A stretch of 64,000 nt of DNA from a virus (taxonomy: Duplodnaviria; Caudoviricetes). Below the pieces are notes generated by a model. The model was not told the origin of the DNA. It saw nothing but the letters and a program-made list of their open reading frames with translations, and did not search any database. The stretch is taken from IMG/VR virus record IMGVR_UViG_3300047160_036266, positions 160,001-224,000 of that record; one strand, 5' to 3'. Position 1 is the first letter of the stretch; each line of letters begins with the position of its first letter. Position numbers and translations under genes: made by a program. Below, piece after piece: positions 15,879 to 46,986 of this stretch.

Positions 15879-16358
15879 TTACATTCCCCCAGGTTGCTGC
15901 TGCGCCGGGGACACATTCATCCCCGCTGCCTGCGGAGCGTTGTTAGCACTGGCCTGACCCGGCGGACCCATTGCCGACTTATTCTGTTGAGCCATATTCT
16001 GCATACCCTGCTTGTCCTGGCCCTCTTGGGGTTTCTCTTTCGCCAGGGCATCGGCCATTTGGCCGACCTGCTGCTTCATGAGATTGAGTTGGTCAATGAA
16101 GGGCTTGACCATTTGCTGGTTGGGGTTCCCTTGGAAGTTCTGGATCGCGTTGTCAATCTCCTGCTCCAGATTGTCCACTGGCGATGGTTCGTGTGCCGGT
16201 GGGGCCGGTTGGTTGGGCATGGGTGCTGCGCCTTTACTGGCTCCCGCTGTGGGTAGTTGTGGCGGCGCTCCCGTCCCCTGGTCATTCGTGGTCGTACCCT
16301 GAGAGGGTGCGCCGTTTTCTTCCTTGAGCAACTTGTAAAACTGGTAGAACGACTTCAT
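15879..16358 (-). CDS. Q/P/A-rich hypothetical protein with N-terminal FxxF..E signal
   Basis: MKSFYQFYKLLKEE; starts 8 nt after the gp14-like stop. Confidence 0.7.
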   Translation of the reverse strand: MKSFYQFYKLLKEENGAPSQGTTTNDQGTGAPPQLPTAGASKGAAPMPNQPAPPAHEPSPVDNLEQEIDNAIQNFQGNPNQQMVKPFIDQLNLMKQQVGQMADALAKEKPQEGQDKQGMQNMAQQNKSAMGPPGQASANNAPQAAGMNVSPAQQQPGGM

Positions 16359-16366
16359 CTGGCCCC

Positions 16367-16900
16367 TTATACGATCTTGTAGTCGGTAGTCTTTTGAGGA
16401 ACCTTGCCCTCGCCCGTGGTGGTGGATTCCTGGTAACGCTGACAGAGCAACTGAATGTGGAGAACCGACCACATCTTGAACTCCGCAAGGTTGCGCTGAA
16501 TGATGACCCAATTCTCTTTCAAGAACGGGGTGAACAGACGACTGCCTATCTTCGGCGGGTAGCCAACGGCGTCGAGCGTTGCCTTGTAGTTCAACTCGAA
16601 CATCATCTCATCGGGGGCGTCGATGCCAAACGCCGTCTGGGCGTTCTGGGACGGGATCGGTTCGTAGTAGCACCAAAGCTGAATCGGGTTATTGGAGAAC
16701 AGCTTGCCCCTGGCCTCCAAATACATGGGGTCGATGGTGTTGCTGTCTACAAAGCATTCGTAGTAATAGATGGGGGAGCCACCCATTTGAATGGCCTCTT
16801 GGTCCCACTGGTTGAAGAGGTCATGCTCCGGTGCAGTATCGTCAAACTGCTGCTTACTGCCAAGAGTGCTGTAAGGTGTGCCGTCTGGCTTGAGTATCAT
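16367..16900 (-). CDS. Neck protein (gp14-like)
   Basis: QEAIQMGGSPIYYY, DPMYLEA, FGIDAPDEMMF, PKIGSRLF. Confidence 0.75.
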   Translation of the reverse strand: MILKPDGTPYSTLGSKQQFDDTAPEHDLFNQWDQEAIQMGGSPIYYYECFVDSNTIDPMYLEARGKLFSNNPIQLWCYYEPIPSQNAQTAFGIDAPDEMMFELNYKATLDAVGYPPKIGSRLFTPFLKENWVIIQRNLAEFKMWSVLHIQLLCQRYQESTTTGEGKVPQKTTDYKIV

Positions 16901-17849
16901 GCTCATATATAGAAAGCCATTGGCGGAATTCTTCGAGGGCCAGCCGTACCGATTCCTGCTGTTCCTCGCCTAACGCTTTCCGCTTGGCCCTCTCTATAAT
17001 TTTGATGAATTGCCGCCTTCCTTCTCCTGTGGGGATGTCCGCCAGTTCGGGGATTTGGGCCAGGATTTCGGCGGTGGGTATCCAGGTCATCGGAATGGCC
17101 ATCTGCCGCCGCACAATTTCCAACGCCCATTGATACCTGGCAACTTCTTTCTGATAATTGGTGCCGCTACCGCCCCGCATTCTCAATTCGTCCAATTCGT
17201 CTTGAATGTTGGCAAGAACGGCTCGTCTCAGGTCATCCCACTCCATATTCTCCCAGGACTCGTCGCCACTGGCTGCTGGGTCCAGGCCCTTCTTTTCAGG
17301 CTTTTCCAACTGGCTCATTTGTACCGTCCGCCTGCCCGCCCGGCGCTTCTGCATGGCGCGTGCGTAGTTGGCCGTGGCATTATAAGCTCGCTTGCGAAGG
17401 GTGCCTCGAATGCCCTTCTGCTCTGCCGATCCGGGATTCAAGGTTTCCCAGGTCACATCCGGTTGCTCGAACAGTTTGGGGTTGAGGGTATCCATCCAGA
17501 TTTGTCCGTTGGCTTCCTCAGCCGCTTGCAAAATGTCAGCGCCGGTCATTTCGGCGGCACCGCCCCTGGCCGCTTTCATCAAAGCCTGGGCATAGGGGAA
17601 ATAAGTCCCCGTGTGATCGTCAACTATGGCCTTAGCTTCCGCTGCGTTGCGTGGGTCGGCAAACTTATTCATTTTGAGAAGTTGGCCAATCATGGAGCGC
17701 ATCATTTGATTGGTAGAATCAATGAACTCCTGCTCGCCTTCGTCGTACCCTGCTCGTCCGCCGCCACGACGAAGTGCCTCCATTAACGGGATGGACGGCA
17801 AGTGCAGTCTGACCTCTACCACAAATGCCCATTCAACAAAACTTAGCAT
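16854..17849 (-). CDS. Hypothetical protein, possibly a degenerate sigma-like factor, with N-terminal FxEW signal
   Basis: MLSFVEW...; TATATA 8 nt upstream; sigma2- and sigma4-like helical pattern seen by eye. Confidence 0.65.
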   Translation of the reverse strand: MLSFVEWAFVVEVRLHLPSIPLMEALRRGGGRAGYDEGEQEFIDSTNQMMRSMIGQLLKMNKFADPRNAAEAKAIVDDHTGTYFPYAQALMKAARGGAAEMTGADILQAAEEANGQIWMDTLNPKLFEQPDVTWETLNPGSAEQKGIRGTLRKRAYNATANYARAMQKRRAGRRTVQMSQLEKPEKKGLDPAASGDESWENMEWDDLRRAVLANIQDELDELRMRGGSGTNYQKEVARYQWALEIVRRQMAIPMTWIPTAEILAQIPELADIPTGEGRRQFIKIIERAKRKALGEEQQESVRLALEEFRQWLSIYEHDTQARRHTLQHSWQ

Positions 17850-17873
17850 AGTGAAGGTATATAAGCCCCAAAT

Positions 17874-17909
17874 GCAAAAAACCCAGGCGTTCATTCCTGG
17901 GTTTTTTGC
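17874..17909. terminator. Intrinsic terminator (bidirectional shape)
   Basis: GCAAAAAACCCAGG-N8-CCTGGGTTTTTTGC. Confidence 0.85.
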
Positions 17910-17921
17910 GATATGGTAAAT

Positions 17922-18311
17922 TTAGTCTAAGGTAATAGTTGGGGTTACTGCGACCTGCCCGCCGCCATTTGGCAACGCGAAGGGGCCGTTGGAAAATATT
18001 TCCACCCACAATAAAGAGCCGCTTAATGTAGTAATGTAGTAACCAACAAGGGTAATTGCAGTGCTAAAGGTGAAAGTCACTTCGGGGTAGGATGCGGTTG
18101 TGACTCCGGCCACCTGAGTGATCGTCCAGTTTGGTCCGTGAAGAGTTGCCGGGGTGTAGCCGGTCGCTTCGGTCAGGTTTTGAAGGGTGGTGGACTCGCT
18201 GGGAACGTAGTTGTTGGTGTACAGGTGAAGTATGCGGTCGTCCGGCACTTGCTGGTTGACAATATACTTCAGCAAAATAATCTCAGCTACGTCAGGCACA
18301 ACTAGGGACAT
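17922..18311 (-). CDS. Putative virion structural protein
   Basis: LHLYTNNYVP...LTEATGY...YPEVTFTF, a Thr-rich beta pattern common in phage tail proteins; GGAGG SD. Confidence 0.65.
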   Translation of the reverse strand: MSLVVPDVAEIILLKYIVNQQVPDDRILHLYTNNYVPSESTTLQNLTEATGYTPATLHGPNWTITQVAGVTTASYPEVTFTFSTAITLVGYYITTLSGSLLWVEIFSNGPFALPNGGGQVAVTPTITLD

Positions 18312-18353
18312 CAAACCTCCGACTGTATTTTAGCTGCTAACGGTATATACTGC

Positions 18354-18977
18354 ATGGCTCTGAAAAATAAAGATGGTTCCGCCTATCGTCTCCGAGGTCC
18401 GAACCCGCTCATGCGCGAGCAGGAACTCTGGAAGGAATTCAGGTTGCACAACTTTGAATTCAAGGGCGTTGTGATGGCGGACACTACCGAAGTGGTTCCT
18501 TTTGAGAGTCCCTTGCAAGTAAATGAATTCATCGGAGAACTGGAAGCCACCAAAGGGGAACCCACTGTAATTGAGAGACAGGTGCGCGAATTCTACGGCC
18601 ACAACGACCAAAACCCGGTGGAAAGGCCGGTCGTGGTCATCCCCGATTTTCGTGAACAAGACAAGGCCGAACCCAAACCAGTCTTTCATTGTCTCCCGGC
18701 GATAATCCGTCGCCACCGGGACGCCCTCTACGGGGAAACCTATGCCACGGTCAAATATGACTCGCCGTTCACCTTCGAGGCATACGTCGTGGACCAGACC
18801 GACTTCAACCTGTTATTCTGGACCAGTGGACCGGCAGCCGAGAAAATTAGCGAGGGGTCCGTTGTGTACCCGAAGCTGATGGAGAAGCGCTGGTGGAAAG
18901 TGGTGTCACGGGAGGAGAAATCCGGCGGCTGGCTTTATAGGTCCATTCCATCCGACTATCAGCCCAAATTCAAGTAG
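18354..18977 (+). CDS. Hypothetical protein
   Basis: 207 aa; TATATA-CTGC-ATG start. Confidence 0.7.
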   Translation: MALKNKDGSAYRLRGPNPLMREQELWKEFRLHNFEFKGVVMADTTEVVPFESPLQVNEFIGELEATKGEPTVIERQVREFYGHNDQNPVERPVVVIPDFREQDKAEPKPVFHCLPAIIRRHRDALYGETYATVKYDSPFTFEAYVVDQTDFNLLFWTSGPAAEKISEGSVVYPKLMEKRWWKVVSREEKSGGWLYRSIPSDYQPKFK

Positions 18978-19239
18978 CCTTCTTTTCGGGCACGACAGCC
19001 ACCTTCAGGCCCAGCTTGCTTAGTTGTTCCCTGTAGTCATTGACGGCCTTGAGGTAGCCCGTCTCGTAGATGGCGGCGATCAGTTGGTTAAATTCGTTGA
19101 AGTCCCTTTCGGTCAGGATCGTATTGGCCATGCGTTCCACAATCTGTTCGTGGTCGGGATATTTCTGTTGCAGTATCTCGAACATATACTTCTTGATGGC
19201 AAACGTCTTGGGGTTGGTCATGGACTGAAAATAGTTCAT
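18970..19239 (-). CDS. Hypothetical protein
   Basis: MNYFQSMTNP...; ATGA overlap with the upstream small gene. Confidence 0.65.
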   Translation of the reverse strand: MNYFQSMTNPKTFAIKKYMFEILQQKYPDHEQIVERMANTILTERDFNEFNQLIAAIYETGYLKAVNDYREQLSKLGLKVAVVPEKKAT

Positions 19240-19427
19240 TGCTTCTTCTGGCCCTTTCTTTCCGCCTTCTTGATTTTTACTGGTCCGACCGACTTGAGGG
19301 TGCCTCCAGCAGCGGCCCCTTGCCAGGTTCCCTCGCCAGGGAACTGTGGTATTTCCGTACCGTCTTCGCCCGCCGTGCCAGCCACGGCGGCTGCCTCCAC
19401 CAACTTGAGCCATTCCTTAAATGTCAT
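19236..19427 (-). CDS. Small protein with FKEW signal
   Basis: MTFKEWLKLVE; TAAATA plus AAGGA upstream. Confidence 0.7.
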   Translation of the reverse strand: MTFKEWLKLVEAAAVAGTAGEDGTEIPQFPGEGTWQGAAAGGTLKSVGPVKIKKAERKGQKKQ

Positions 19428-22221
19428 AAGTCTGTCCTTTATTTATGCTCTGAGGCAGCCGATTTAGCAAGGAGATGGCGGCGCGATCAACGCCCGTCGC
19501 CGTTCCTTGCGCCACCTTCTGTTCCAGTCGCTTCAGCAACCCCATGACCATTCGTGGGGTGGCCCGCCGCTGGAACCTGCCGTGGAATGCGATATTGGCC
19601 CACTCTCCCCGGCGGAAATAGTCATCCAGTTCCTCGTCAGCCAATGGCGAGGCCGGAGTCGGCCCTGGCAGAGCCGGTCCCCGTGGTTGCAACAACTTCT
19701 CCGGCGGTCGGGGTGGGATGGCGGTGGGCTTCATCGCTTTGACACGCTCCCGCAATTCCTCCATTGCCGGCCTGAGCGATGGGTATTGACGGACCATTTC
19801 TTCGGCAGCCTGCGTTATGGATGGGTCCGCCAGTTTTCTTGCCGCCTGTTCCGGGTCTTGCAGGATATATTGCTCGAATTCCTTCCACTTCAGCATCACA
19901 TCCGCTGCCGGCTCATCCATCTTGGGAGGTTCAGCGCCTCCCTGTTTGGACAGGTGTTCTACCAGGCCCCGCACCCGGCCCACTACGTCCTTCGGCTCTT
20001 TCTCCTGTGTTCTGATTTGCAGAATATCTTCCTGGGCCTTGGCCTCTGCCTCAGCCGGGTTCATGCCCATGTTCTCGTAGGTCATGGCCAGGGCGTAGAA
20101 GCACATATATGTGACGTTGCGCTCTTCGGTCAACGCTTCCATCTTCAGGCGGGCATCACCCGTCCTGTCGGCCTTGGTCTTTTCGGCCTCTGCTTTTTCG
20201 GAATCCTTGGCGGCGTCCCGGAGAAGTTCGTCGTGCAGTACCCGGAGGTTGTATTTGAAGGCACAGTATCCCGTCTGCAACGCCCTGGACCCTCGTAGAT
20301 CGCAGCCCTTGGTCTGAGCTTCCGTCTGTTGCTCTTGAATCGCTCGCGCCTTAATCCGCTCCATGTAGGCGTGGAGGTCTTCGCCGCCTGGTTCGATGCC
20401 TGGACGCTCGCCACGCAGACGCCGGGTGCCACGGCTCCAGTCCTGCTGGGCGTAGTTGCTGACCAGGGTTTTGATCTTGTTGTACCGGGTCCGTTGTTTG
20501 AAAATATATGGATCGTCAAGATTTTCCAGCAGCATGTCCCAGGCAAGGGCGTATAGCTTCTTGGTCATGCTCTTGAGTACCCGTTGTTCAAAAGTCTCTG
20601 CGCCGCCGACTCGTTCCCCCAGCGCCCCTTCAATTGACTTCACAATCTCGGCGTAATACTGGCCGTGAGGGTTGGACTCGAAATTAAAATCGTCATCCAG
20701 GTCGCCCCGTCCTCCGTTGTTGAGGAGAGACTTCTCCAGGCGTGCCAGCCGGTCAGGAAAATCTGGGTGGGCCGGGTCCAGGTACTTCCGGCCCGGTGTA
20801 TTTTGGTTGGGGTGGAAGGCACCGGCGCGAATATGGTTCGTGCCCTGCCAGCCCGGCTTGCTGAAATCGCCCTCGTCTCCCTCTTCTTCCTGGTCAATAT
20901 CTGGGAAATCGCCTACCTCGACATAATCTTTCTCGTGGCCCAACCTCATGTCTTCGGGCAAAGCCGCCATCTCGTCGTCAGTAAGTTTGCGCAGGAACTT
21001 GCCCGGCAGGAGAACCGGCACTTCATGCTCTTCCTGGGTCCGCTCGCCGGTGTGTGGATTTAGGCGTGTCACCTGGACCTTCTTCTTCGGCAGGTGCAAC
21101 TCCGGGGAGATTACCTCGTACCTTGGTTGGGTTGTGGGCTTTTTTGGCTTTTTCTCGCCGGGTTTGGGCTTGGGTGGTGGCCTGGGAGGCAGTTTGTTTA
21201 CTTGCACTACCTGGCCCTGGGGGTGGCCCGGCGAGGGCGGCGAGCGCAGTTTGCCCTGTTGGGCAAGGTGGTAAATATCGTCCCATGCAAGTTCCTCAGC
21301 CAGCTTGCGGCGCAAGCTACTCCTGGTCTTAATGTCGCTCTCGCTCACCGGCTCGTTCGGGAATATTTGGTCCCACTTTTCTTTCACAAATGGGTCGCCC
21401 GGTATATTCATCCAGTGGGTCTTGGCCATTTCCTTGCGTATCTTATCGACGGTAAAGGTGTCCCGTATTTCTGACTGTCCAAGGCCGATGCCCCGATCCG
21501 GCCCCCACGTCTCCGGGGGATGAGGCAGTTCGCCCAACATGCGGTGAGCAGTGTAATTCATCCAGTCGCTCAGCCGCTCGGAGGCAGTGTGCTTCTTCAT
21601 GAAATTCATACCACGAGTGGCGCTATGCAGCTTGTCGGAGCGCGAAACACGAGGGTTCCACAAGTCATAGCCGTTTGCCACGCCCGTATCCCCTTCGATC
21701 TTGTGAATCAGGGACTCCATCTGCGGTTTGGCGACAATAACGTGTGGCTCGCCGCCGCCGGGGACTCGGAACGAATAATTCTTCTCTTCGGGATACTTGA
21801 TGTGCGGTACTTTCCGTTCAGCGTACAGTTCGGCTTCATGCGAAGCTCGTGAGGCAGCCCGGCGTTTCGCTATGTCGGCGTTGTGTTCCCGGCCCTCTTC
21901 GTCCAGATACCTGGGGAAGAGTTCGTTGTATTTCTCGTCGTAGGCAGGCTTGCGAGCCTCCTCGCGCGCCTGGAGGGCTTCGAGGAGGTCGTCGTGGTAG
22001 CGCTTGAGAAGAGCTTCCTTCCAAAACCGGCGTGGGAATTGATGGAGGAAGGCAATGTCGCCCTCATCAAACTTGATCGGCTGCTTGAATATGTGCATCC
22101 GCTTGGCCATTTCGTCCAGGCGGAACTTTGTGTAAGCCTGGTCCTTGCCATAATACGCCGTGTTGAAAAAGCGGGCAAAGGAGCGAGGCTCTACAAAATG
22201 TGTTTCCGTGTGCATTACCAT
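19417..22221 (-). CDS. Large hypothetical protein (934 aa)
   Basis: Long ORF with Pro/Lys-rich linker, divergent from the gp13-like gene. Confidence 0.8.
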   Translation of the reverse strand: MVMHTETHFVEPRSFARFFNTAYYGKDQAYTKFRLDEMAKRMHIFKQPIKFDEGDIAFLHQFPRRFWKEALLKRYHDDLLEALQAREEARKPAYDEKYNELFPRYLDEEGREHNADIAKRRAASRASHEAELYAERKVPHIKYPEEKNYSFRVPGGGEPHVIVAKPQMESLIHKIEGDTGVANGYDLWNPRVSRSDKLHSATRGMNFMKKHTASERLSDWMNYTAHRMLGELPHPPETWGPDRGIGLGQSEIRDTFTVDKIRKEMAKTHWMNIPGDPFVKEKWDQIFPNEPVSESDIKTRSSLRRKLAEELAWDDIYHLAQQGKLRSPPSPGHPQGQVVQVNKLPPRPPPKPKPGEKKPKKPTTQPRYEVISPELHLPKKKVQVTRLNPHTGERTQEEHEVPVLLPGKFLRKLTDDEMAALPEDMRLGHEKDYVEVGDFPDIDQEEEGDEGDFSKPGWQGTNHIRAGAFHPNQNTPGRKYLDPAHPDFPDRLARLEKSLLNNGGRGDLDDDFNFESNPHGQYYAEIVKSIEGALGERVGGAETFEQRVLKSMTKKLYALAWDMLLENLDDPYIFKQRTRYNKIKTLVSNYAQQDWSRGTRRLRGERPGIEPGGEDLHAYMERIKARAIQEQQTEAQTKGCDLRGSRALQTGYCAFKYNLRVLHDELLRDAAKDSEKAEAEKTKADRTGDARLKMEALTEERNVTYMCFYALAMTYENMGMNPAEAEAKAQEDILQIRTQEKEPKDVVGRVRGLVEHLSKQGGAEPPKMDEPAADVMLKWKEFEQYILQDPEQAARKLADPSITQAAEEMVRQYPSLRPAMEELRERVKAMKPTAIPPRPPEKLLQPRGPALPGPTPASPLADEELDDYFRRGEWANIAFHGRFQRRATPRMVMGLLKRLEQKVAQGTATGVDRAAISLLNRLPQSINKGQTYDI

Positions 22222-22248
22222 TTTTCCAATCCTGACTCTATATATGAC

Positions 22249-23160
22249 ATGCCTTCATCTTCTTGCAACCAGGACACTTTGCTAATTTGCCGCCCGACTG
22301 CCCAGACGGCTCAACAACAGCAACAGCAGGGCTGCCCATCTACCTGCGGTAACAACCTGGGCGTTTCCGACCCTCTGAACAGGAATCAACTCAGCCCACG
22401 TCCCAATCGCAGTAAGGTTCGGGGACAGATAAAGGACTACATTCTATTGATGCTCGGCGCTCCAGTTGTCAGCATCGAATTGGATGAGCAGCAGGTGGAC
22501 GCCGCTGTGGACCTGGCTCTCCAGATATTTGAGGACTACGCCCCCAGGGAATACTTCCAGTATTACGTCTTCAATACGATCCCCGGCAAGAGCGTTTACG
22601 AGTTGCCGCCCGACGTGGGCATGGTCCGCAACGTATTCTACAAGCAGACCGGCACCTTTGCCTTTCAGTCGTCCGACCTGGGCGGTGCCATCCCCGTGGA
22701 GTATTTCTACCCTGGCGGTGCCTATGGCAGTATTACCGGCGGTCTGATTGACCCGGTGCAGCCGATCTGGGGTCGCATGGGCGAATGGGTGTTGTACAAG
22801 CAATACGAGCAGATGTATTCGCGCATCGCCTCGAACCTGGGCGGCTGGGAGTGGGTTGGCGGCTTCAACCACATTAAGATATATCCTATTCCGTTCCGGG
22901 TCCATCAGGTCATTGTCCATTATCTCCAGAAGCACACCGACTGGCAGCAGGTAACACAAGCCATGCAGGAGGGGGCGCTGGCTTTCGCCAAGATCATGCT
23001 GGGTCGTATCCGTAGCAAGATCAAGAACCCGCCTGGTCCTAACCAGGGCGTGCAGTTGGATGGGGATACGCTTCTTCAGGAAGGAAGGGAAGATAAGGAG
23101 AAATGGGAAGAGCGACTGTTGGTTCGCTTCGGAGATATTCTGCCAATTACTTTGGGATGA
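22249..23160 (+). CDS. Neck protein (gp13-like)
   Basis: IKDYILLMLGAPVVSIELDEQQ...ALQIF, GVQLDGDTLLQEG...LPITLG; start moved to 22249. Confidence 0.85.
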   Translation: MPSSSCNQDTLLICRPTAQTAQQQQQQGCPSTCGNNLGVSDPLNRNQLSPRPNRSKVRGQIKDYILLMLGAPVVSIELDEQQVDAAVDLALQIFEDYAPREYFQYYVFNTIPGKSVYELPPDVGMVRNVFYKQTGTFAFQSSDLGGAIPVEYFYPGGAYGSITGGLIDPVQPIWGRMGEWVLYKQYEQMYSRIASNLGGWEWVGGFNHIKIYPIPFRVHQVIVHYLQKHTDWQQVTQAMQEGALAFAKIMLGRIRSKIKNPPGPNQGVQLDGDTLLQEGREDKEKWEERLLVRFGDILPITLG

Positions 23161-26243: not shown

Positions 26244-26324
26244 GGCGGAATCTCCTTTGGGGGCAAGGTTTTCCGACTCTACTCTACTGCCCGGAGAAAA
26301 CGGTTGTCAAGGGCTAAATAGGGC

Positions 26325-26804
26325 ATGATGTTGACTGAGCAATTCCATCGCATCGGCACCAACGGCAAGAAATATTATGGCCTCTGGGGTGCTGGCATCC
26401 TCTTCACCGATGGCGACCGAATTCTGTTGCTCCGGCGAAATACTCCGTCCGATTGTCCCAGCAAATGGGGATTACCAGGAGGGAGGGCCGAGAAGGGCGA
26501 GTCGGCCATTGACTGTGCGCGACGGGAGGCGAAGGAGGAGTGCGGCACACTCACCGGCACCCGCTTCGCCAACTTCGAGGAGATCGACGGTAAGCACCGC
26601 TTTTATGTCTTCCTTTATGCAGTTGATTCCCCCTTTGAGGTTAAATTGACCAAGGAACACGACAAGTCGGAGTGGGTGCCGCTGGGGGATTTAGACAAGT
26701 ATGACCTGCATCCTCGTCTGGAGAAGCAGATGCCGTATTATCGGAAGGCCATTTCTCGTAGATTCCCCCCTAAAAAGTTCACCGAATGGTTGGCGTGTCG
26801 ATAA
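26325..26804 (+). CDS. NUDIX hydrolase
   Basis: Nudix box GGRAEKGESAIDCARREAKEECG. Confidence 0.92.
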   Translation: MMLTEQFHRIGTNGKKYYGLWGAGILFTDGDRILLLRRNTPSDCPSKWGLPGGRAEKGESAIDCARREAKEECGTLTGTRFANFEEIDGKHRFYVFLYAVDSPFEVKLTKEHDKSEWVPLGDLDKYDLHPRLEKQMPYYRKAISRRFPPKKFTEWLACR

Positions 26805-26810
26805 ATCCAG

Positions 26811-26838
26811 TTGACAGTTGGGCGAAATCAATTAAAAT
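26811..26838 (+). promoter_or_regulatory. sigma70-like promoter
   Basis: TTGACA-N16-TAAAAT. Confidence 0.6.
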
Positions 26839-27000
26839 TCTGGAGGCGACCAAACGCTGCCGCATTTGCCCGCTGCCGGAATTTGCCTGCCTGACCGAAT
26901 TTTCCGTTACCGAAATCGGCATGTGAGTTGCAGAATCATTCCTCGAACGAGGAGGAACGCCATAGTGTTGTATCTGAACCCACGACGAAGGAGTAGTCCG

Positions 27001-27252
27001 ATGATCGCGTTACTCGAACACCACCAACCTGCCAGGATGACCGACCTGGAGAAGTTCCTCGAAGACGTTATCCGCACAAGCTCAAAGGGCCTGCGGTTGC
27101 ACGAATTCGTGTTGAAAGCCCTCCATCACGGCTACCGGGGCGAGGAACGGGGCGAACTCACCAAGAACATCCATCGGTCCCTCAAGCGTCTGGTCCGCCG
27201 GGGCGTGATCCGCCGCACGGAAGATGAAAACGCCGTGGAATTCGTGGCCTGA
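27001..27252 (+). CDS. Small putative DNA-binding protein
   Basis: AAGGAG SD; NIHRSLKRLVRRGVI is winged-helix-like. Confidence 0.6.
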   Translation: MIALLEHHQPARMTDLEKFLEDVIRTSSKGLRLHEFVLKALHHGYRGEERGELTKNIHRSLKRLVRRGVIRRTEDENAVEFVA

Positions 27253-27274
27253 CACTGTAAACGCCCCTATACAC

Positions 27275-27309
27275 ACTGCCCAGCGGCTTGGCCGCTGGGC
27301 AGTTTTGTT
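27275..27309. terminator. Intrinsic terminator
   Basis: Perfect 13-bp stem ACTGCCCAGCGGC-TTG-GCCGCTGGGCAGT then TTTGTT, between convergent genes. Confidence 0.85.
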
Positions 27310-28682
27310 TACACCTTGGCGCGCTCCCTCACTTCCTCGAATGTCCATTCTCGCAACACTTCCCCGTTGCGAAATACCTCAACCAGCACATCTTCCCCAG
27401 GCCCGACCATCGGTAGGGTCTTATAACCGCCTCCCTGCCGCACCAATTTCATGCGCCCGGCCTTGCTGGCTTTCCCCTGATCGGTGACGGGCTGCTTGTA
27501 AACCTCCCGCTCCTGTCCATTGACAGTCACCGCTGCACACTTGAAGGCGAACTTGAGCGTGTCCCGATTCAGCTTTTGGAGTAAACCCCCGCCAGAACCA
27601 AAAGCAATGTTGTCGCCAGACCAGCCCCGATTCTTCATCGCCAGCAGGATCGCTCCCAAGGTGTCGAAGTCGATCCCATCGCCCTGGATGATACGGACGT
27701 GCGGATTTAACACCTTGAATCCCTTGGAGTTCCTTTCGTAGCCGAAAGCCTCTCCCAGCACATCCAGAACGGTGGGCACCACGGTGGTAGGCTCCCCGGA
27801 ATCAGGCCGGATCACCACCGTGCCGTTGCGCCCCAGGACCATCTGACGGAGTTCCTGGCCCCAATACTTCTCGCACGCCTGGAAGATGTTGAAGGAGTCG
27901 CTGACGACGGCCACCAGGCCCTCCGGGAACTGCTCCAGCATGTTGCGGAAGGCAGCTACCTCGAAATCCTTACCCCAGGACGTGATCGTGGAGTGTTCGG
28001 CGGCGGGAATTGAAAAACCGGCCATGTTGCAGCCGTAGTAATCACGGGCGACCTGCGGCCCTGCGAGCGTGTCTGTGCCAAGGAAGCTCACCAGATGTGC
28101 GGCACCGCCCACTCCGGCTGTCTCCACGGAGGAAACACCACGGAAACCGAAGTCATGGAGCTTGAATCCAACCAGGGCTGGATCGCCCGTTTCCCGCAAG
28201 TTATCGAGGAGAATCCTCTTCATCTCCCGGCTCTGGGTGGCCACCGTGCAGCCATACCAGACCTGTACCAGAAGAGTCTCCAGGTAGTTGGTCAGCCAGT
28301 AGCACTTGGGGTCGGTATTTTCGATGGTCATGAGGACGTTGTGGTTAGGAACCACCGTCCCTTCAGGCACCGCTTTGATGCTGACCGGCAACATGCCGTG
28401 GTGCTTCTTCAGGATATATTCCCAGCCCTCCCGGTTGAAGAGCTTGGCGTTGCCGAAGTGTTTGGCGAAGAAGTCTTCCGCCTGGTCGATGAAAACGGGC
28501 CAGATGCGGACGTTCTGAAGGTAGGTCTTGAGATAATACTGGAGGCCGAAGAAAACGACCTCCTTCCAGCGCCCGCCCCGTGATTCGTAGTAGGAGTACA
28601 CCGTCTCGGTGCCGGGCGGGTACTGCTTGTGGTGGCTCACCTTGTAAGAGTCGGTGAGCAGGATGATGTTGTTGGCGTTCAT
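27309..28682 (-). CDS. nadV: Nicotinamide phosphoribosyltransferase (NAMPT)
   Basis: LTDSYKVSH, LHDFGFRG, PAAEHSTITSWG, VSDSFN, IRPDSG, IIQGDG, FGSGGGLLQ. Confidence 0.95.
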   Translation of the reverse strand: MNANNIILLTDSYKVSHHKQYPPGTETVYSYYESRGGRWKEVVFFGLQYYLKTYLQNVRIWPVFIDQAEDFFAKHFGNAKLFNREGWEYILKKHHGMLPVSIKAVPEGTVVPNHNVLMTIENTDPKCYWLTNYLETLLVQVWYGCTVATQSREMKRILLDNLRETGDPALVGFKLHDFGFRGVSSVETAGVGGAAHLVSFLGTDTLAGPQVARDYYGCNMAGFSIPAAEHSTITSWGKDFEVAAFRNMLEQFPEGLVAVVSDSFNIFQACEKYWGQELRQMVLGRNGTVVIRPDSGEPTTVVPTVLDVLGEAFGYERNSKGFKVLNPHVRIIQGDGIDFDTLGAILLAMKNRGWSGDNIAFGSGGGLLQKLNRDTLKFAFKCAAVTVNGQEREVYKQPVTDQGKASKAGRMKLVRQGGGYKTLPMVGPGEDVLVEVFRNGEVLREWTFEEVRERAKV

Positions 28683-28725
28683 GTAACCTCCTTGGCCCAA
28701 TTGTACGTCAGGAAAGCTTCACTGT

Positions 28726-29154
28726 TTAGTCAAGGTCCAGACGCAGGCCCAGGTTGTACCGACGAAAGCCGACCTTCTCGTAGAACGGGGCGACTTCTTC
28801 TGTGCAGTCGAGAGTGAGCTTGTAACAGCCGTTCGCTTTTGCCAGTTCCACGGCTCTTTCCATGAGCTTCTGGCCGATGCCCTCTTTTTGAAATTCCCGA
28901 TGTACTGCCACGTCCTCGACGTGTCCCACCTTGCCGCACCCGTGAATGTACTTTTGTTCAATGAACAGGGTAAGGGTGCCAACAATGCGCTCGCCCAGCT
29001 TAGCGACGAGGGTATGATACCCCCAGCGGTGGTTATAGGCCACTGCGGCGAGGGAGTAATCAGCGGGTTTGGTCGGTGTCAGGGCATTCAGACACTCCCA
29101 AAAATCCTGGCTGGTCACGTCCTTATAATCTGCCGGTTCTATGGACAGGTGCAT
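28726..29154 (-). CDS. GNAT acetyltransferase, glucosamine-6-phosphate N-acetyltransferase (GNA1)-like
   Basis: LFIEQKYIHGCGKVGHVEDVAV...GCYKLTLDC...FYEKVGF. Confidence 0.82.
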   Translation of the reverse strand: MHLSIEPADYKDVTSQDFWECLNALTPTKPADYSLAAVAYNHRWGYHTLVAKLGERIVGTLTLFIEQKYIHGCGKVGHVEDVAVHREFQKEGIGQKLMERAVELAKANGCYKLTLDCTEEVAPFYEKVGFRRYNLGLRLDLD

Positions 29155-31557: not shown

Positions 31558-32139
31558 ATGAACTTCAGACAGTGGTTAGAGAATAACCAAACCGCCGCAG
31601 ACATTCAGAAAGCCCTTGGGGGTATGGCGGGTGGACTTAAAATTGGTGCCCTCGTCAAAGCTGCCGTTCTATTCGTTCAGGGGCGTGATGCCGAGATGAA
31701 CTCCTTTATGGTAGGCTTCGACCAAAAGAGAAAACAGCAATTTCTGGACTTCTTGAAGACGCATCTCCCACAAAAACACCCTGGGCTTAGTAGTTCCCAG
31801 GTTTATGGCGACCCTGGCTTCGACAAATTCCGCAAGACCGCCCTGGAGCCTTTTATCGAAAAACTGTTTGGGGAACAGGACGCCGAAAAGCAGGCCCCGA
31901 AGCAGTTCAGCATTATTGGCTACCTGAAGAGTCAAGGGGTTGAGGTTGAACAAAGTCCCGATGGTATCATTTATACCAAAGGACCGCCACCCTGGGGCAA
32001 TCATGCCTTTCATATCAGGAGCGGGACCGTTGGGGTTCGCAACCGTGCTACCGGCAAGATGGTTTACCTCCCTCCAGTAAAGACTCCCCAGGAAGCCGAA
32101 GATGCAATCAAGCGAATTATTACCGGCGGTGCTATATAA
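31558..32139 (+). CDS. Hypothetical protein with FRQW signal
   Basis: MNFRQWLE; TAGATA-GTGT-ATG. Confidence 0.7.
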   Translation: MNFRQWLENNQTAADIQKALGGMAGGLKIGALVKAAVLFVQGRDAEMNSFMVGFDQKRKQQFLDFLKTHLPQKHPGLSSSQVYGDPGFDKFRKTALEPFIEKLFGEQDAEKQAPKQFSIIGYLKSQGVEVEQSPDGIIYTKGPPPWGNHAFHIRSGTVGVRNRATGKMVYLPPVKTPQEAEDAIKRIITGGAI

Positions 32140-32155: not shown

Positions 32156-32599
32156 ATGCAAACATTCCTTGAGTGGGCGGATGATAACGGTTTATTGTTG
32201 GAAGCCGCTTTGGTTAAGTATTTATTTCCCAAGCAGTGGGGTAAGTCCGCCGATGACATGGGACAGAAGGGGTTCGCCATCTATGGCGTACCGATAAATC
32301 CCCAAACCATGAAGCCGGCTGGCTCAACAATCGCCGTGTGGGCCAAGGACATCCGGCGAGCCACCCAGGAGGAAGGCCAGTTCGGCAACAACTTCGTCCT
32401 GCAAGTCGTGCCGGACCCCAGGTTTGTTCGACAGGCCGGCAACATTCACATGCTCATCCTGGGCGCTGAGAGAGCCAACCAGTTGCTCGATGAATTTGAA
32501 TCCTTCCAGAAGCAGCAAGCGATGGCGCAAGCTCAAAGTCAGGTTCGTCGTGTGCCTGGCAGCCGGGGCATGTTCCTTGGGAGAACCGGAACCGAGTAA
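32156..32599 (+). CDS. Hypothetical protein with FLEW signal
   Basis: MQTFLEWADDNGLLLE; TATATA and GGAGG upstream. Confidence 0.7.
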   Translation: MQTFLEWADDNGLLLEAALVKYLFPKQWGKSADDMGQKGFAIYGVPINPQTMKPAGSTIAVWAKDIRRATQEEGQFGNNFVLQVVPDPRFVRQAGNIHMLILGAERANQLLDEFESFQKQQAMAQAQSQVRRVPGSRGMFLGRTGTE

Positions 32600-32610: not shown

Positions 32611-33210
32611 ATGTGGCGATTCCGTGAATATGTTGAATCCAGGGACAAATCCTTTAGCGAACTATGGCAACGGAGTGCGGGCTTACTCGGCTCCAAACAG
32701 GCCAAGCTCGCCCCTCCGTCAGCCCAACCTGCCGCAACAGCCCCAGCACAACAAAAAAACTGGCTGACGCCTGTGCCGCAGCACACGGGCGGGCACCTTA
32801 CACTTTACCGTGGCATCGGCGGTGACTTCGATCCACATTACTACAGCGCCCAACAAGCGTGGAGCATGGACCTAGAAACCGCCTATGAGTATGCCCTCAA
32901 AAACGCCAATGCCCAAGACACCCTCCCAACCGTTGTAAAAACGACGTTGCCAGGACATCTTCTCGATCCAAACCGTATAGGCATACCCACGGACAAAGCA
33001 GTTATGCACGCCAGCGGAACCGCCATTGTAGACATACCGCCGCCCGTATTACAAAAGCTGAAGGTCGAAGTTATCCCCCAACAGGAATTGGACCATAAAT
33101 TTCCATACAACGCTAAATGGGCGTACCAATTACGACAAGCGGCCCACCGGGCTGCTCATGGTATGGACCCCAATGCGGAGGAAGACTGGATGATTTCGGT
33201 GGACGATTAG
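32611..33210 (+). CDS. Hypothetical protein with ADP-ribosyltransferase-like motifs and FREY signal
   Basis: MWRFREYVE; LTLYRG...WSMDLETAYEYA; TATATA-CGGC-ATG. Confidence 0.55.
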   Translation: MWRFREYVESRDKSFSELWQRSAGLLGSKQAKLAPPSAQPAATAPAQQKNWLTPVPQHTGGHLTLYRGIGGDFDPHYYSAQQAWSMDLETAYEYALKNANAQDTLPTVVKTTLPGHLLDPNRIGIPTDKAVMHASGTAIVDIPPPVLQKLKVEVIPQQELDHKFPYNAKWAYQLRQAAHRAAHGMDPNAEEDWMISVDD

Positions 33211-38298: not shown

Positions 38299-38583
38299 TT
38301 ATTCTGTCTCGTATTCCTTGCCCGGCTCCTCACGGGTGCCGCCTTCCGGCCCGATGGCATAGTCGGGCGGCGTCTTGTGATGAACGTGGTGCTTATATTT
38401 GGTGAACGGCGGGCCGGGTGCCATCTTTTGGATGGCATCGGCAGCGCTGGGGATGAACCAGAGATCGGGGTAGTGGGAGCGTATATATCCATCCGGGTAC
38501 GCCCACCAAGCGATGCCGGCACGCTTGGTGCTTTCATCCAACTCCAGGTTGTGCCCTTCGACCCAATGGAAAAACGTATCCAT
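38299..38583 (-). CDS. Small protein, tandem paralog A
   Basis: MDTFFHW...ESTKRAGIAWWAYPDGY; AAGGAG SD. Confidence 0.75.
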   Translation of the reverse strand: MDTFFHWVEGHNLELDESTKRAGIAWWAYPDGYIRSHYPDLWFIPSAADAIQKMAPGPPFTKYKHHVHHKTPPDYAIGPEGGTREEPGKEYETE

Positions 38584-38591: not shown

Positions 38592-38810
38592 TTACGGGGC
38601 TTCGTCAGAAGGTGCCTTGCGGCTAGGCTGATGCTTGCCCATCTTCTGTAGGGCGTCGGCAGCGTGGGGCATGAAATAACCGTCCGGGTACTGCTGGCGA
38701 ACATAGGCATCGGGGTAAGCCCAATGAGCAATACCGGCCCGCTTGGTGTCTTCACTGACTGCGGGGATTTCCAGCTTGTTCTCTTCGGCCCATGCGATAA
38801 ATGTCTTCAT
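38592..38810 (-). CDS. Small protein, tandem paralog B
   Basis: MKTFIAW...EDTKRAGIAHWAYPDAY; GAGG SD. Confidence 0.75.
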   Translation of the reverse strand: MKTFIAWAEENKLEIPAVSEDTKRAGIAHWAYPDAYVRQQYPDGYFMPHAADALQKMGKHQPSRKAPSDEAP

Positions 38811-41366: not shown

Positions 41367-41415
41367 ATTTGGCGGACCAGACATATATAACCAAAAGTTT
41401 CAAAGGGAGATATAC

Positions 41416-42423
41416 ATGCTAGGATATTCACAGTGGAAGAAGCTGAACGAGTCGTTCGCTGGCGCGATCCCTCTCGGTGTTTCCAGTCCCAACAGCCTGG
41501 GCGTTCGTGGTGGCATCGAGGGCACTCGCATTGCCCTGGAGGAAGCTCGCAAGAAGTCCAAGAAATATGCCGACGTGGATGTTGAGGACGAAGGCGGCGA
41601 TGACGTAATGAATCCAGACACCGACGAGGACGAAGGTGGCTGCAAGTTCTGCGGCAAGTCCAAGAAGAACGCAGCCAAGAAGTCCGTGAAGCGATCCAAG
41701 AAATACATGGGTGCCGATATGGACCTGGGCGGCGGCGATTTTGAGGACGCCGGCCCGCCCCCACCCCACCACAAGCTGGGCAAGGGCAAGCCCTTTGGCA
41801 AGGGCAAGCACCCCCTCCATCCCGACCATCTCGGCGGTGGCGATGATGATGACCTGGGTGGTCTGGGTGGCGATGATGACGACCTGGGCGGTCTGGGTGG
41901 CGATGATGATATGGGCGGCGACCTGGGCGGCGGCGATGATGATATGGGCGGCGACCTGGGCGGCGGCGATGACGATATGGACATGGGCGGCGACCTGGGT
42001 GGACCTCCCGGACACCCCGACCTCCACCATCCTGGTGGTCCCCTCAACAAGCATTCCGCCATGCACAAGAAGCCTTTCCACCCCGGCAAGGGTGGCGACC
42101 TGGATATGAAGATGGCTGCGGCCATGATGAAGAAGAAAATGGCGAAGCGAATGAGGAAGGAAGCCTTCCTGCACGACGATGACGAATGGCTGGCAAGCGT
42201 GAAGTCGATGTTGACGCCCCAGAATGTGAAGTATGGTGACGGTTGGACCGAATATCAGGAGGAGGCGCTATTGCCGCCCTCCGATCCCAATGCGGCTGTT
42301 ACCGATAGGGAGCCTCAGCCCGGCGAACCCGGCTTTGCGCCGGTCGGACGGGTAGGCCCGCCTCTGGGTGGCAACGCCGTTGACGGGTTCAATGAATGGC
42401 GCAGACAGAATCGCAAGCGGTAA
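41416..42423 (+). CDS. Gly/Asp-repeat, intrinsically disordered protein (possible head core/scaffold)
   Basis: MLGYSQWKKLNE; GGGAG SD; alternating basic and acidic blocks. Confidence 0.75.
   Translation: MLGYSQWKKLNESFAGAIPLGVSSPNSLGVRGGIEGTRIALEEARKKSKKYADVDVEDEGGDDVMNPDTDEDEGGCKFCGKSKKNAAKKSVKRSKKYMGADMDLGGGDFEDAGPPPPHHKLGKGKPFGKGKHPLHPDHLGGGDDDDLGGLGGDDDDLGGLGGDDDMGGDLGGGDDDMGGDLGGGDDDMDMGGDLGGPPGHPDLHHPGGPLNKHSAMHKKPFHPGKGGDLDMKMAAAMMKKKMAKRMRKEAFLHDDDEWLASVKSMLTPQNVKYGDGWTEYQEEALLPPSDPNAAVTDREPQPGEPGFAPVGRVGPPLGGNAVDGFNEWRRQNRKR
41833..42000 (+). repeat. Coding tandem repeat (GGDDDDLGGL / GGDDDMGGDL)
   Basis: 27-33 nt units; exact 33-nt duplicate at 41902-41967. Confidence 0.9.
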
Positions 42424-44957: not shown

Positions 44958-45859
44958 TCCGTATAAAACCCCTGCGATTCCTGGCTTTCGTTGACCCGGC
45001 GGAACAAGTCGGCGGGCATGAATTGTTCCACGATTATCATGAACTTGCCGGCCAGTTCTTTGTCGCAGGTGTTAATTGCTTTCTGAAGCGCCGCCTTGTC
45101 ATAACCGAAGCAACGATAGGCCACCGAAGGGTCATCCTCCTCCAAAAGCTCCTCGTTAAGCTCCCAGAACCGGCGGTAGCCGCCCTTGTTCACGAAATGG
45201 AGGACGAAATCACAAATGTCCCAGACCAGCCCAACCTGGCGGGGTGACTCCAGCCAGAAGGCGCTCAAGGGACGATATTCCAGGCCATAGTCCTTTTCCC
45301 GGTGGCTGCCGGCCAGACCGTAAACGCTGCGCCGGTCCTTACTCGTCTTATCTTGCTCCATGAAGACGGACGGGATGCCCAGGAACAAGTCGAGCATATA
45401 AACCACGAACGGCTTTTCCCATGAGTTTTGCAGGACTCCTCCACCGCCCAAATGGATATGTCCGCCCGCCGTGCGGAAATTCGACTTCTTTATTACCCCC
45501 TTGGGCGGCTCGATCACCTGAAGGGTGTAAGCGTCCCATTCTTCCACGCAGCCGACCTCTCGTGCCTCCTTGGTCTGCATCTGACTCTCCGGGAATTCCT
45601 GAGATGCCTGGATGTGCAGTTTGTAAGGCTTCACCATTTTGGTGTAGAGGGTGAAACAGTCTTGGAAGTTCTTGAGGACTTCCGCACGGTTTTTCCCTGG
45701 TTTTATGGCGCATTCAGCCAGCACGTTGTCGTAGTAGAATTGGTGCCCGCCCATGTCGAGCCGGTATTGCCGGTCGCCCTTGACGATGCCGATGGCGCTG
45801 TAATACTTCCCGCCCTTCATCAGAAGGAACTCAGGATCACTGCCGAAGGTAAACCCCAT
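44942..45859 (-). CDS. phiEco32-like COOH-NH2 ligase type 2 (amidoligase)
   Basis: GSDPEF, DNVLAE, RTAGGHIH, YGLAGSHR..YGLEYRPLSAFW. Confidence 0.88.
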   Translation of the reverse strand: MGFTFGSDPEFLLMKGGKYYSAIGIVKGDRQYRLDMGGHQFYYDNVLAECAIKPGKNRAEVLKNFQDCFTLYTKMVKPYKLHIQASQEFPESQMQTKEAREVGCVEEWDAYTLQVIEPPKGVIKKSNFRTAGGHIHLGGGGVLQNSWEKPFVVYMLDLFLGIPSVFMEQDKTSKDRRSVYGLAGSHREKDYGLEYRPLSAFWLESPRQVGLVWDICDFVLHFVNKGGYRRFWELNEELLEEDDPSVAYRCFGYDKAALQKAINTCDKELAGKFMIIVEQFMPADLFRRVNESQESQGFYTEWGLD

Positions 45860-45871
45860 AAGACCACTCCT

Positions 45872-46681
45872 TTAGTAACGGTGCCAGTAGGGTATGTAGA
45901 GCTTGGTCGCTTCATTCGAGAACGACACAATGCCCATCTCGTTGTGCATCGTGTCGATGTCCATGTCCTCTGGGTAGTTATCAAAGATGTCCCGGTGGAA
46001 GAGCCGGCGGGGTCCATAACGCATGATCTTCTGAATGCCGTCTTTGGCCTCTTCCAACTGCGTCTTGTCCGACGTGTAGCGACCTTTCTGGTACGACTCC
46101 ACAATGCCGGTGCGGACGTGACTAATGGTGAAGTTCCACGGCGACCCGACCTTATGAGCAAAGCCCACCCGGATGAACAAGGTGTACAACGACAGCATGG
46201 GTGGGGCAATTTGCCAGAGGCGGCTGCCCTCGAAAAGCCAGACCCCGCACTTCTGATATTTGCGGGGCGTTGGCAGGCAGCGGGTGCAAGTGGTCTTACG
46301 GAGTTTCAAACGAGCCTCGATTTGATTCAGGAAGTCGAGGCACGGCGCTATTTTGTTGCCGAAATCACTGTCTCGTGAGTTGGTTATAAGGATGCGCGTC
46401 CGCCGCAGGTCAATCGGCGGATGCTGGGACGGGTCGTACTCGAACCCGTAGGTTTCTTTTCGTGTATCGTATAAGTAGCCCTGGATGGCGTCTTGTAGGA
46501 AGTCCTTGCACCAGACGAAGTAGCAGCACTGGCGGTTGTCGGCAGAGAGCAGGGAATATTCCAAACCCTGGCGATAAACCTGGAGAATGCGAGGTTTATC
46601 CGCTTCCCTCGATATAAGCCACTGGACTTCGATTGGTTGGCGCATATTGTTGAGGCTATCAGCAAAATAAAGCCGGGTCAA
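45872..46681 (-). CDS. Hypothetical protein
   Basis: 269 aa, same strand and directly upstream of the ligase; start uncertain. Confidence 0.7.
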   Translation of the reverse strand: MTRLYFADSLNNMRQPIEVQWLISREADKPRILQVYRQGLEYSLLSADNRQCCYFVWCKDFLQDAIQGYLYDTRKETYGFEYDPSQHPPIDLRRTRILITNSRDSDFGNKIAPCLDFLNQIEARLKLRKTTCTRCLPTPRKYQKCGVWLFEGSRLWQIAPPMLSLYTLFIRVGFAHKVGSPWNFTISHVRTGIVESYQKGRYTSDKTQLEEAKDGIQKIMRYGPRRLFHRDIFDNYPEDMDIDTMHNEMGIVSFSNEATKLYIPYWHRY

Positions 46682-46698
46682 GCCTAAATATTGTAGTC

Positions 46699-46986
46699 AT
46701 GAACAGCTTCAAAGAGTTTTTCTGGGACGGGGAGGTTATTGGCTTGTACCTCAACCGCCAGGATTTGAAAATATCCGAGATCGCCCGCCACTGCTCGAAG
46801 TCCCAGGCCGAAATATATCGCATCCTGCACGACAACGGCATCAAGCCCAACCGGCTGAAGACCGGCCACGAGGCCGTGCAGCAGCTTGCCGAACGGGGCT
46901 GGACGGTGGGCGAAATTGCCAACATGACCGGCTACACGGATCGGAACGTCCGCTATATTCTCTCCAAGATGAGGCTGAGCGAGTGA
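46699..46986 (+). CDS. Tandem HTH protein
   Basis: ISEIARHCSKSQAEIYRIL and TVGEIANMTGYTDRNVRYIL. Confidence 0.75.
   Translation: MNSFKEFFWDGEVIGLYLNRQDLKISEIARHCSKSQAEIYRILHDNGIKPNRLKTGHEAVQQLAERGWTVGEIANMTGYTDRNVRYILSKMRLSE

Follow-up and report, generated by a model that had tools for sequence, protein, structure and literature searches.

The closest described counterpart of the system reported here is the capsid-targeting sequence (CTS) of the internal proteins (IPs) of bacteriophage T4. Packaging of IPIII needs only its first ten residues, with residues 4 and 7 serving chiefly in targeting and residues 8 and 10 in processing (PMC9026906), and the IPs co-purify with gp22 (PMC9026906, PMC3012670). 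T4 also packages Alt, an ADP-ribosyltransferase whose N- and C-terminal propeptides are cut by gp21 (PMC9026906). The ejection or inner-body proteins of phiKZ and SPN3US have propeptides that are removed by the prohead protease, and the SPN3US head contains over 50 gene products (PMC5694885, PMC7411985, PMC10052503). Here, a stretch of 64,000 nucleotides, called the window (bases 160001-224000 of the 343,421-bp IMG/VR virus record IMGVR_UViG_3300047160_036266, an uncultured soil phage), was analysed. A sequence-only reading had noticed that ten otherwise unrelated proteins of this window share an N-terminal motif, M-x-F-x-x-[W/F/Y] with a trailing E, and had proposed that they are cargo packaged in the capsid. 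Our analysis revealed that the shared N-terminus (the tag) is under selection as a peptide, and we think it rather likely, by analogy with T4, that it is a CTS of the IP type.

CheckV puts the completeness of the record at 69%. Since a 669,797-bp contig carries a protein identical to one from the record, the genome probably measures about 670 kb in full. A codon-usage open reading frame (ORF) caller gave 424 genes with a coverage of 90%. Its start codons were imperfect: the capsid gene was shortened and the 41416 gene was started wrongly at 41338 (genes of the window are named here by an end coordinate). BLASTP with T4 proteins identified homologs of the morphogenesis proteins gp23, gp21, gp20, gp17, gp18, gp15, gp6, gp25 and gp4, and further of gp41, gp46, gp47 and UvsW. 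A DNA similarity search of a phage collection found no close cultured relative, and the sole relative detected was LR756511.1, an uncultured 595-kb phage with 69% DNA identity across the head genes, in which 981 genes were called. Among the listed sequencing runs, the stretch occurred in soil metagenome DNA runs only and in no RNA run.

A shared N-terminal peptide on unrelated proteins

All ten N-terminal peptides were present in the sequence at the start codons claimed for them. Start 17849 was backed by a TATATA box 8 nt upstream, and start 41416 by 13 database homologs, all of which begin MLSYKQWKxLNES at the same residue. The sequence-only reading had asked whether the motif is any commoner at N-termini than at internal positions, and the pattern ^M.{1,2}[FY]..[WFY] was indeed commoner there, being found at 38/424 predicted N-termini vs 35/2350 internal Met positions. 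Model-free residue counts showed enrichment of F at residue 4 (2.0x), of W at residue 7 (2.7x) and of E at residues 6 and 9. To avoid circularity, the motif matrix for a scan of the full genome was trained solely on the N-termini of LR756511.1. With this cross-trained matrix, 31 N-termini scored >=10 bits vs 0.9 expected from internal blocks (35x), and 39 scored >=8 bits vs 2.5 expected. The reverse matrix, trained here and applied to LR756511.1, gave 40 vs 2.2 expected, and the enrichment of N-termini over internal positions ranged from 6 to 35x overall. The tag is a genome-wide and clade-wide feature that extends beyond the window. The consensus in both genomes was M-[K]-[T/S/N]-F-[R/K]-[E/Q]-[W>F>Y]-[L/V]-E/x-L-x-E, and in condensed form the tag reads M-K-T-F-[RK]-[EQ]-[WFY]-[LV]-(x0-3)-E.

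About 43 tagged proteins, or about 10% of the genes, remained once five probable false positives were set aside, these being N-termini whose orthologs lack the tag or whose segment lies inside a known domain. These five high-scoring proteins were the gp17 terminase, a 645-aa head-cluster protein, g197371, g35078 and a DnaG-like primase whose N-terminus falls within a zinc-ribbon domain profile; their likeness to the tag is probably intrinsic or due to chance. Among the window cases, the cross-trained matrix scored 31558, 19427, 32611, 32156, 46699 and 16358 as strong, 17849 and 38810 as moderate, and 38583 and 41416 as weak. The last two were accepted despite their scores, 38583 because it is a paralog of 38810 and 41416 because of its homolog family. 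The F and the W/F/Y three residues on are present in every tag by construction. The motif core began at residue 3 or 4 in 30/43 tags (first aromatic at residue 4 in 20/43 and at residue 3 in 10/43), and one of [LVIM] directly followed the second aromatic in 35/43. The trailing E was also borne out, with a Glu located 5-10 residues past the first aromatic in 40/43 tagged proteins vs 129/378 controls (34%). The conserved residues were encoded by synonymous codons (TTT/TTC, GAA/GAG/CAA/CAG, CTG/TTA/TTG), and the tag was found after strong Shine-Dalgarno (SD) sites and after SD-less starts alike. Because the codons vary freely and the tag follows both kinds of start, it is a signal at the level of the peptide, not of the DNA.

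The tag was then compared with the T4 leaders, which read MKTYQEFIAE in IPII and IPIII and MKTFKEFTST in IPI in the T4 record. The pattern M.{1,2}[FY].[EQ][FWY] matched 25/424 starts here and 40/981 in LR756511, and in T4 it matched five annotated starts, namely IPI, IPII and IPIII together with gp61.1 and gp46.2. Both of the latter genes have IP-like leaders, MKTFKEFIKEDM in 61.1 (NC_000866 18966-19130, -) and MTFDEFKNVMM in 46.2 (NC_000866 35168-35431, -). The full 9-column matrix from the phage scored T4 IPI-III low (-0.8 to 4.9 bits), as the columns past the second aromatic differ and the pseudocounts are small; only a 6-column matrix and the regular expression recovered the IPs. The likeness to T4 is therefore confined to the first seven or eight residues. 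Of the T4 parallel drawn in the sequence-only reading, the targeting half, with aromatics at positions 4 and 7, was supported, whereas the strict cleavage rule L/I-x-E, found within 12 residues in about 35% of tags, was not established. Judged by sequence, the likeness lies in the targeting half and the processing half differs.

The proteins behind the tag evolve like cargo. Only one homologous pair, the adjacent 38299/38592, was found among 48 tagged bodies compared beyond residue 20, in agreement with the description of the carriers as unrelated. An LR756511 homolog was detected for 15/48 tagged proteins (31%) vs 175/376 untagged ones (47%), and the tag was nearly always kept in the orthologs (MVKTFMQWAEE, MDGFKEFFAE, MLEFRQWFEA, MLEFKEFIDKKE, MRTTFLEFMGLKE). 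Domains were also re-used: residues 306-471 of g238140 (472 aa) match a 170-aa LR756511 protein that has its own tag, MNFSGWLNE. Tagged genes clustered, with 11 adjacent pairs vs 4.2 expected (P 0.0014), and often lay inside structural modules; four, for instance, are located between the portal and terminase genes. When IMG/VR was scanned for exact matches to DNA encoding MKTFx[E/Q]WLE, 45 sites were detected on about 39 contigs, whose GC content was 30-54%; 40 of these sites were open for >=40 codons, and 20 had a box 3-9 nt upstream. Peptidase_S77 was present in 7 of the 10 largest tag-bearing IMG/VR contigs, among them the two that are complete (572 kb and 194 kb). In the cultured T4-like phages Aeh1, KVP40, Syn9 and S-PM2, counts of a tag pattern were near those of controls; the same pattern gave 21 vs 1 for the control in the genome studied here and 31 vs 6 in LR756511. 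The comparison therefore identified no cultured phage with a published virion proteome that could stand in for the one studied here. Since the cultured phages are near controls and the tag recurs across IMG/VR contigs, the expansion is a trait of a branch of T4-like phages that is uncultured and whose genomes are mostly large. No description of such a tag expansion was found in the literature.

Late promoters and head machinery

The sequence-only reading had placed TANATA upstream of most of the ten genes, and it was found within 34 nt of 7/10. The spacing between TA-N-ATA and ATG peaked sharply at 4 nt (21 cases) and 5 nt (28 cases), with about 5 at other spacings, and LR756511 behaved likewise. 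The box, TA[A/T/C]ATA, was preferentially preceded by C (57%), and the composition further upstream was flat, with no -35 conservation. The T4 late promoter is TATAAATA at -13 to -6, and that of the T4-like phage Aeh1 is CTAAATA starting at -12 (Nolan et al. 2006, PMC1524935). By its sequence, the TANATA box is identified as an Aeh1-type late promoter of the T4 family. It has the same heptamer, the same C at -12 and no -35 element, and it is located upstream of late or structural orthologs; it differs in its placement, since about 40 genes have it only 4-5 nt ahead of the start codon. In a small sample, a box was located within 90 nt (16-75 nt) upstream of gp4, the sheath gene gp18, the scaffold gene, the portal gene and gp17, and within 90 nt of the 645-aa gene, and no box was found within 90 nt upstream of gp41, gp46 and gp47. 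A TATATA box at 22239..22244 (+) stands 4 nt before the ATG of an untagged gp13-like neck gene (22249-23160), which matches the PHROG head-tail adaptor Ad2. Because the box abuts the ATG of this untagged gene, it marks late and structural genes generally.

The box was strongly associated with the tag. It occurred within 30 nt of 27/43 tagged genes vs 44/376 others (P 5e-13), and in LR756511 of 32/40 vs 123/941; when the box was left out of gene calling, the association was 16/40 vs 21/384. Head cargo requires late expression, so late expression of the tagged genes would fit a cargo role. In the window, CTA[A/T]ATA stands 4-5 nt before ATG without an SD at 22239-22251, 18344-18356, 26315-26327, 31548-31560 and 32601-32613. 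With the last A of the box at -6 and a 5-nt spacer, +1 would fall on the A of the ATG, and leaderless late mRNAs are therefore predicted for about 40 genes, both the timing and the start site being deduced from the promoter sequence. In T4 the spacing from box to ATG peaks at 23-28 nt, and no arrangement abutting the ATG was found.

The head machinery was of the T4 type. A gp21-type protease (genome 251141-251824) was identified by Peptidase_S77 (Pfam, 90 bits) and by the PHROG head maturation protease (163 bits), and homologs of gp23, gp20 and gp17 were present, with PHROGs confirming the major head protein and the gp13-like adaptor. A gene at the gp22 position, between protease and capsid protein, was assigned as scaffold by its position. 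BLASTP at 1e-3 of the 69%-complete record found no separate homolog of T4 gp22, gp67, gp68 or gp24, the sole gp24 match being the gp23-like capsid gene. A predicted complex of the gp22-position protein with a 63-aa tagged protein (19236-19427), run without controls, scored 0.00. The major capsid gene (genome 248780-250216, -) encodes a gp23-like N-terminal propeptide of about 51 residues that ends ..ENQRLMNE|VSTD, with a conserved R-L-[MF]-N-E|[VI] in place of L-T-E|A, the cleavage site of T4 gp23. Since the capsid propeptide keeps a T4-like Glu site, cutting after Glu in this clade is plausible from the sequence.

A second N-terminus, M-K-N-[H/Y]-W-[L/I], was observed on seven otherwise dissimilar small proteins here (window 2703-3263 and 4011-4151; genome 21568, 45934, 63844, 244978 and 245329; all on the minus strand) and on three in LR756511 (307348, 307488 and 535233). 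One of them, genome 245132-245329, goes on with a copy of the capsid propeptide (..LLEGQRLQNE). The shared start may be another address tag, or these proteins may form a mini-protein family.

Tagged genes of the window and candidate cargo

The first three tagged genes (15879-19427) sit in a structural module, between the genes for the gp18-like tail sheath and the gp15-like protein (11206-14880, -) and the gp13-like neck gene (+). The 159-aa ORFan at 15879..16358 (-) starts MKSFYQFYKLLKEE (F4, F7, L-K-E13; 8.1 bits) and has a body rich in Q and P. The 331-aa ORFan at 16854..17849 (-) starts MLSFVEWAFVVE, and its TATATA box lies at 17858-17863(-), 8 nt before the ATG. The 63-aa mini-protein at 19236..19427 (-) starts MTFKEWLKLVE|AAAV (15.4 bits), with L-V-E at residues 9-11 and a body of low complexity; its gene is preceded by a TAAATA box at 19440-19445(-) and then by an SD-like aagga. 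Three tagged genes follow one another from 31558. The 193-aa ORFan at 31558..32139 (+) starts MNFRQWLENN (19.2 bits) and has a TAGATA box (31548-31553) 4 nt before the ATG and no SD. The 147-aa ORFan at 32156..32599 (+) starts MQTFLEWADDNGLLLE (10.1 bits) behind TATATA at 32133-32138 and then an SD (GGAGG). The 199-aa protein at 32611..33210 (+) starts MWRFREYVE.

Two small proteins are encoded side by side. The 94-aa protein at 38299..38583 (-) starts MDTFFHWVEGHNLELDE and has an upstream SD and no box; it is a paralog, with 54% identity across 56 aa, of the 72-aa protein at 38592..38810 (-), which starts MKTFIAWAEENKLE. The latter belongs to a large family from phage metagenomes, in which 105/115 database clusters begin in an MK[TS]F..W-like manner, and MVKTFMQWAEE is the start of its LR756511 ortholog. 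The 335-aa protein at 41416..42423 (+) starts MLGYSQWKKLNE|S (Y4, W7, L10-N-E12), and its gene has a TATATA box at 41384-41389 plus an SD. The middle of the protein is a long low-complexity region of acidic and basic residues, and its C-terminal part, which includes GFNEW (42385-42399), is conserved. In the family of 14 sequences, Y4 and E12 are invariant (M-L-S-Y-K-Q-W-K-x-L-N-E|S) and the charged low-complexity body is poorly conserved. In this protein and its 13 homologs, the body is an extreme run that alternates between acidic (D/G) and basic (K) stretches. Because this body is similar to the acidic tail of gp67, a core protein of the T4 prohead, the protein may be a component of the core or scaffold and not an effector. 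The last tagged gene, 46699..46986 (+), encodes a 95-aa double helix-turn-helix DNA-binding protein (Pfam HTH_5 and HTH_IclR; PHROG DNA-binding families) that starts MNSFKEFFWDGE; its TAAATA box (46685-46690) lies 8 nt before the ATG, and the LR756511 ortholog starts MDGFKEFFAE. It was the only one of the ten window proteins with a family in Pfam and PHROGs, as 9/10 had none, and atlas look-ups of the 31558 and 16854 proteins returned nothing usable.

The 32611-33210 protein consists of a tag helix, a disordered linker (residues 26-60) and a putative ADP-ribosyltransferase-like domain (61-182). The ADP-ribosyltransferase fold has a split beta-sheet NAD-binding core, as in diphtheria toxin, exotoxin A, Tpt1, Arr, RES and ParT, and carries the catalytic signature R-S-E or H-Y-E. 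Comparison with six homologs showed that Y66-R67-G68, S79, H133 and D141 are invariant and that there is no invariant Glu, and BLASTP gave no significant match to T4 Alt or ModA. Distant homologs (27-30% identity) have different linkers and canonical tags (MNFREWLLIE, MRFKDWLTLSEE and MRFKQWLFLEE), and one homolog has neither an N-terminal extension nor a tag. Outside the window, the tag was found on a UvrD-like helicase, a PolyA_pol-type nucleotidyltransferase, a radical-SAM protein, a C39-like cysteine peptidase, an Acb1-like 2H phosphoesterase and a DUF3293 protein, with carriers of up to 887 aa.

The motif had also been read at two C-termini, and both are present: EFRQWL in the 16854 protein (16914-16931, -) and KFTEWL in the Nudix protein of 26325-26804 (26775..26792, +), the latter weak and isolated. 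The enrichment of such C-termini turned out to be weak, with five cases of F.[EQ]W in the last 30 residues, or 0.44 per 1000 aa vs 0.16 internally (2.7x). Four of these five proteins are also tagged at the N-terminus, the Nudix protein being the exception, and members of the 41416 family share a conserved F[NT]EW near their C-termini. By analogy, the C-terminal motifs recall the double trimming of T4 Alt and are offered as a lead.

An island beside the tagged genes (26325-31529) was identified from translations and annotated BLAST neighbours. Its products are metabolic enzymes. Two of them, a Nudix hydrolase and a nicotinamide phosphoribosyltransferase, make up a pair for NAD salvage, and their genes are 4 kb away from that of the ADP-ribosyltransferase-like tagged protein. 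The others are a GNAT acetyltransferase, a family-4 uracil-DNA glycosylase, a glucose-1-phosphate thymidylyltransferase and a Thg1-like tRNA-His guanylyltransferase.

Packaged cargo and comparison with known systems

The interpretation of the shared N-terminus as a CTS of the IP type draws on the peptide tag itself, its likeness to the targeting half of the T4 CTS, its link with the late promoter, the T4-type head machinery and the cargo-like evolution of the carriers. From these, core docking, cleavage and injection are proposed by analogy with T4. Tagged genes would be transcribed late from the T4-family promoter (C)TA[A/T]ATA, which in about 40 genes stands 4-5 nt from the ATG, so that many of the mRNAs would be leaderless. 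The first ten or so residues would form a short amphipathic helix whose aromatics 4 and 7 dock the protein on the prohead scaffolding core. The gp21-type prohead protease would then cut after a nearby Glu and release the cargo within the head, from which it would be expelled into the host along with the DNA. The cargo would be a large, quickly turning-over and mostly orphan set that includes enzymes, and by the same analogy such a fast-changing set of proteins is probably packed and injected.

Several results weigh against this interpretation. The Glu of the tag is most frequent at +5 and +8 relative to the first aromatic, whereas in T4 it is at +6; [LIVM]-x-E occurs within 12 residues in just 35% of tags vs 16% of controls; and in 13/43 tags (~30%) the motif lies 1-5 residues further from Met than in T4. 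The carriers are very many, about 10% of the genes and roughly 1.2 MDa at one copy each, and they include a helicase, a nucleotidyltransferase and a radical-SAM protein, for which the benefit of packaging is not obvious. The gp22-position protein matches no recognisable family in PHROGs, and homologs of gp55, a fast-evolving protein, and of gp33 were not found by single-sequence BLASTP and a genome search with gp55 in this 69%-complete record. A few high-scoring N-termini, such as those of the DnaG-like primase and terminase gp17, are probably intrinsic and not tags.

The strongest competing explanation accepts the tag as a real peptide signal and sends it to a destination other than the prohead core, such as a shared chaperone, a membrane or assembly-factory site, a hub of late metabolism, or a phage or host protease that reads it as a signal for timed degradation. 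Peptide-level selection was demonstrated and the partner was not, several of the tagged nucleic-acid enzymes could work unpackaged in the infected cell, the strict T4 cleavage motif is frequently missing, and the number of carriers is far above that of any known packaged set. However, the motif matches the experimentally defined T4 targeting determinants residue for residue, the tag co-occurs with the S77 protease, no result points to an alternative partner, and the fast turnover and tandem arrays suit an arms-race payload better than core metabolism. Another destination therefore appears unlikely, though it deserves more weight than the two explanations that follow.

The start might instead be conserved for translation, the first codons or the nascent peptide aiding ribosomes on leaderless late mRNAs. 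The strong link of the tag with an ATG-abutting box, replicated in LR756511, agrees with such a role, but for about one third of the tagged genes no box lies within 60 nt, and a classical SD precedes many of them (e.g., 32156, 38583, 38810 and 41416). Conversely, about half of the genes with box-N4/5-ATG are untagged, such as those for the gp13-like, Nudix and UvsW-like proteins. The conserved residues use synonymous codons, and in T4 the same peptide is encoded by IP genes whose mRNAs are SD-led and whose late box is 23-28 nt away from the ATG. These observations make a role in translation improbable. The pattern could also be an artefact of chance, composition, cherry-picked starts or hidden paralogy, since the pattern is loose, starts 17849 and 41416 differ from the first gene call and one tagged pair is paralogous. 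This explanation was tested and rejected: a matrix from the other genome found 31 N-termini where 0.9 were expected, both disputed starts were independently backed, and 47/48 tagged bodies have no detectable relative in the set. The recurrence of the tag in LR756511 and on about 39 IMG/VR contigs of widely differing GC content also leaves an artefact hardly credible.

If the tag acts as in T4, a plain sequence rule would predict the capsid-borne, first-seconds proteins of huge uncultured phages and yield a list of candidate proteins for anti-defence and host takeover, the majority without a known family; a ten-residue address known from three T4 proteins would organise about one tenth of a proteome. 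A broader proposal, which we advance only tentatively, is that of a cargo regulon, in which about 10% of the genes are expressed late, largely from leaderless mRNAs, and their products are packaged and injected under one T4-like address. It would comprise about 45 genes in the 343-kb part and perhaps about 90 in a genome of about 670 kb. The payload would include the ADP-ribosyltransferase-like protein, an Acb1-like cyclic-nucleotide phosphodiesterase, the C39-like protease, the UvrD-like helicase, the nucleotidyltransferase and the radical-SAM protein. No bacterial virus has been described with a pre-packaged arsenal of effectors and anti-defence proteins that comes near such a payload in size and diversity. 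The ATG-abutting promoter suggests a class of leaderless late mRNAs, of which we found none described for T4-like phages. The tag also provides a testable handle for reporters or for virion proteomes of cultured relatives.

Compared with phiKZ and SPN3US, the phage would, by analogy, share a giant head loaded with many proteins and a T4-related prohead protease. The cleavage motif of those phages is described as S/A/G-x-E, and their proteins are not known to us to share a short N-terminal address peptide; judged by its head genes, the clade described here resembles T4. The comparison with T4 Alt is closer in function than in sequence. Alt is an enzyme carried in the head and injected, and the tagged 32611-33210 protein is putatively ADP-ribosyltransferase-like; four tagged proteins also have a C-terminal tag-like motif that recalls the two propeptides of Alt. 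However, the 32611 protein has no sequence similarity to Alt, the enrichment of the C-terminal motif is weak, and the N-terminus of Alt itself (MELITELFDE) is not of the IP type.

The closest match is with the T4 IPs. In both, a stretch of about ten N-terminal residues, M-K-T-[FY]-x-E-[F/W]-[I/L]-x-E, carries aromatics at positions 4 and 7 (Y4/F7 or F4/F7 in T4), followed by a hydrophobic residue and then Glu. In both, the tag is borne by otherwise unrelated, fast-evolving proteins in a phage with a gp21-type protease and a gp23/gp20 head, and the genes lie behind a T4-family late promoter. The two differ in scale and in detail: about 43-48 carriers were found in 343 kb here, whereas T4 has three IPs plus gp61.1 and gp46.2; the second aromatic here is mostly W; the carriers reach 887 aa and include enzymes; and the late promoter stands 4-5 nt from the ATG in many genes here, compared with 23-28 nt in T4.

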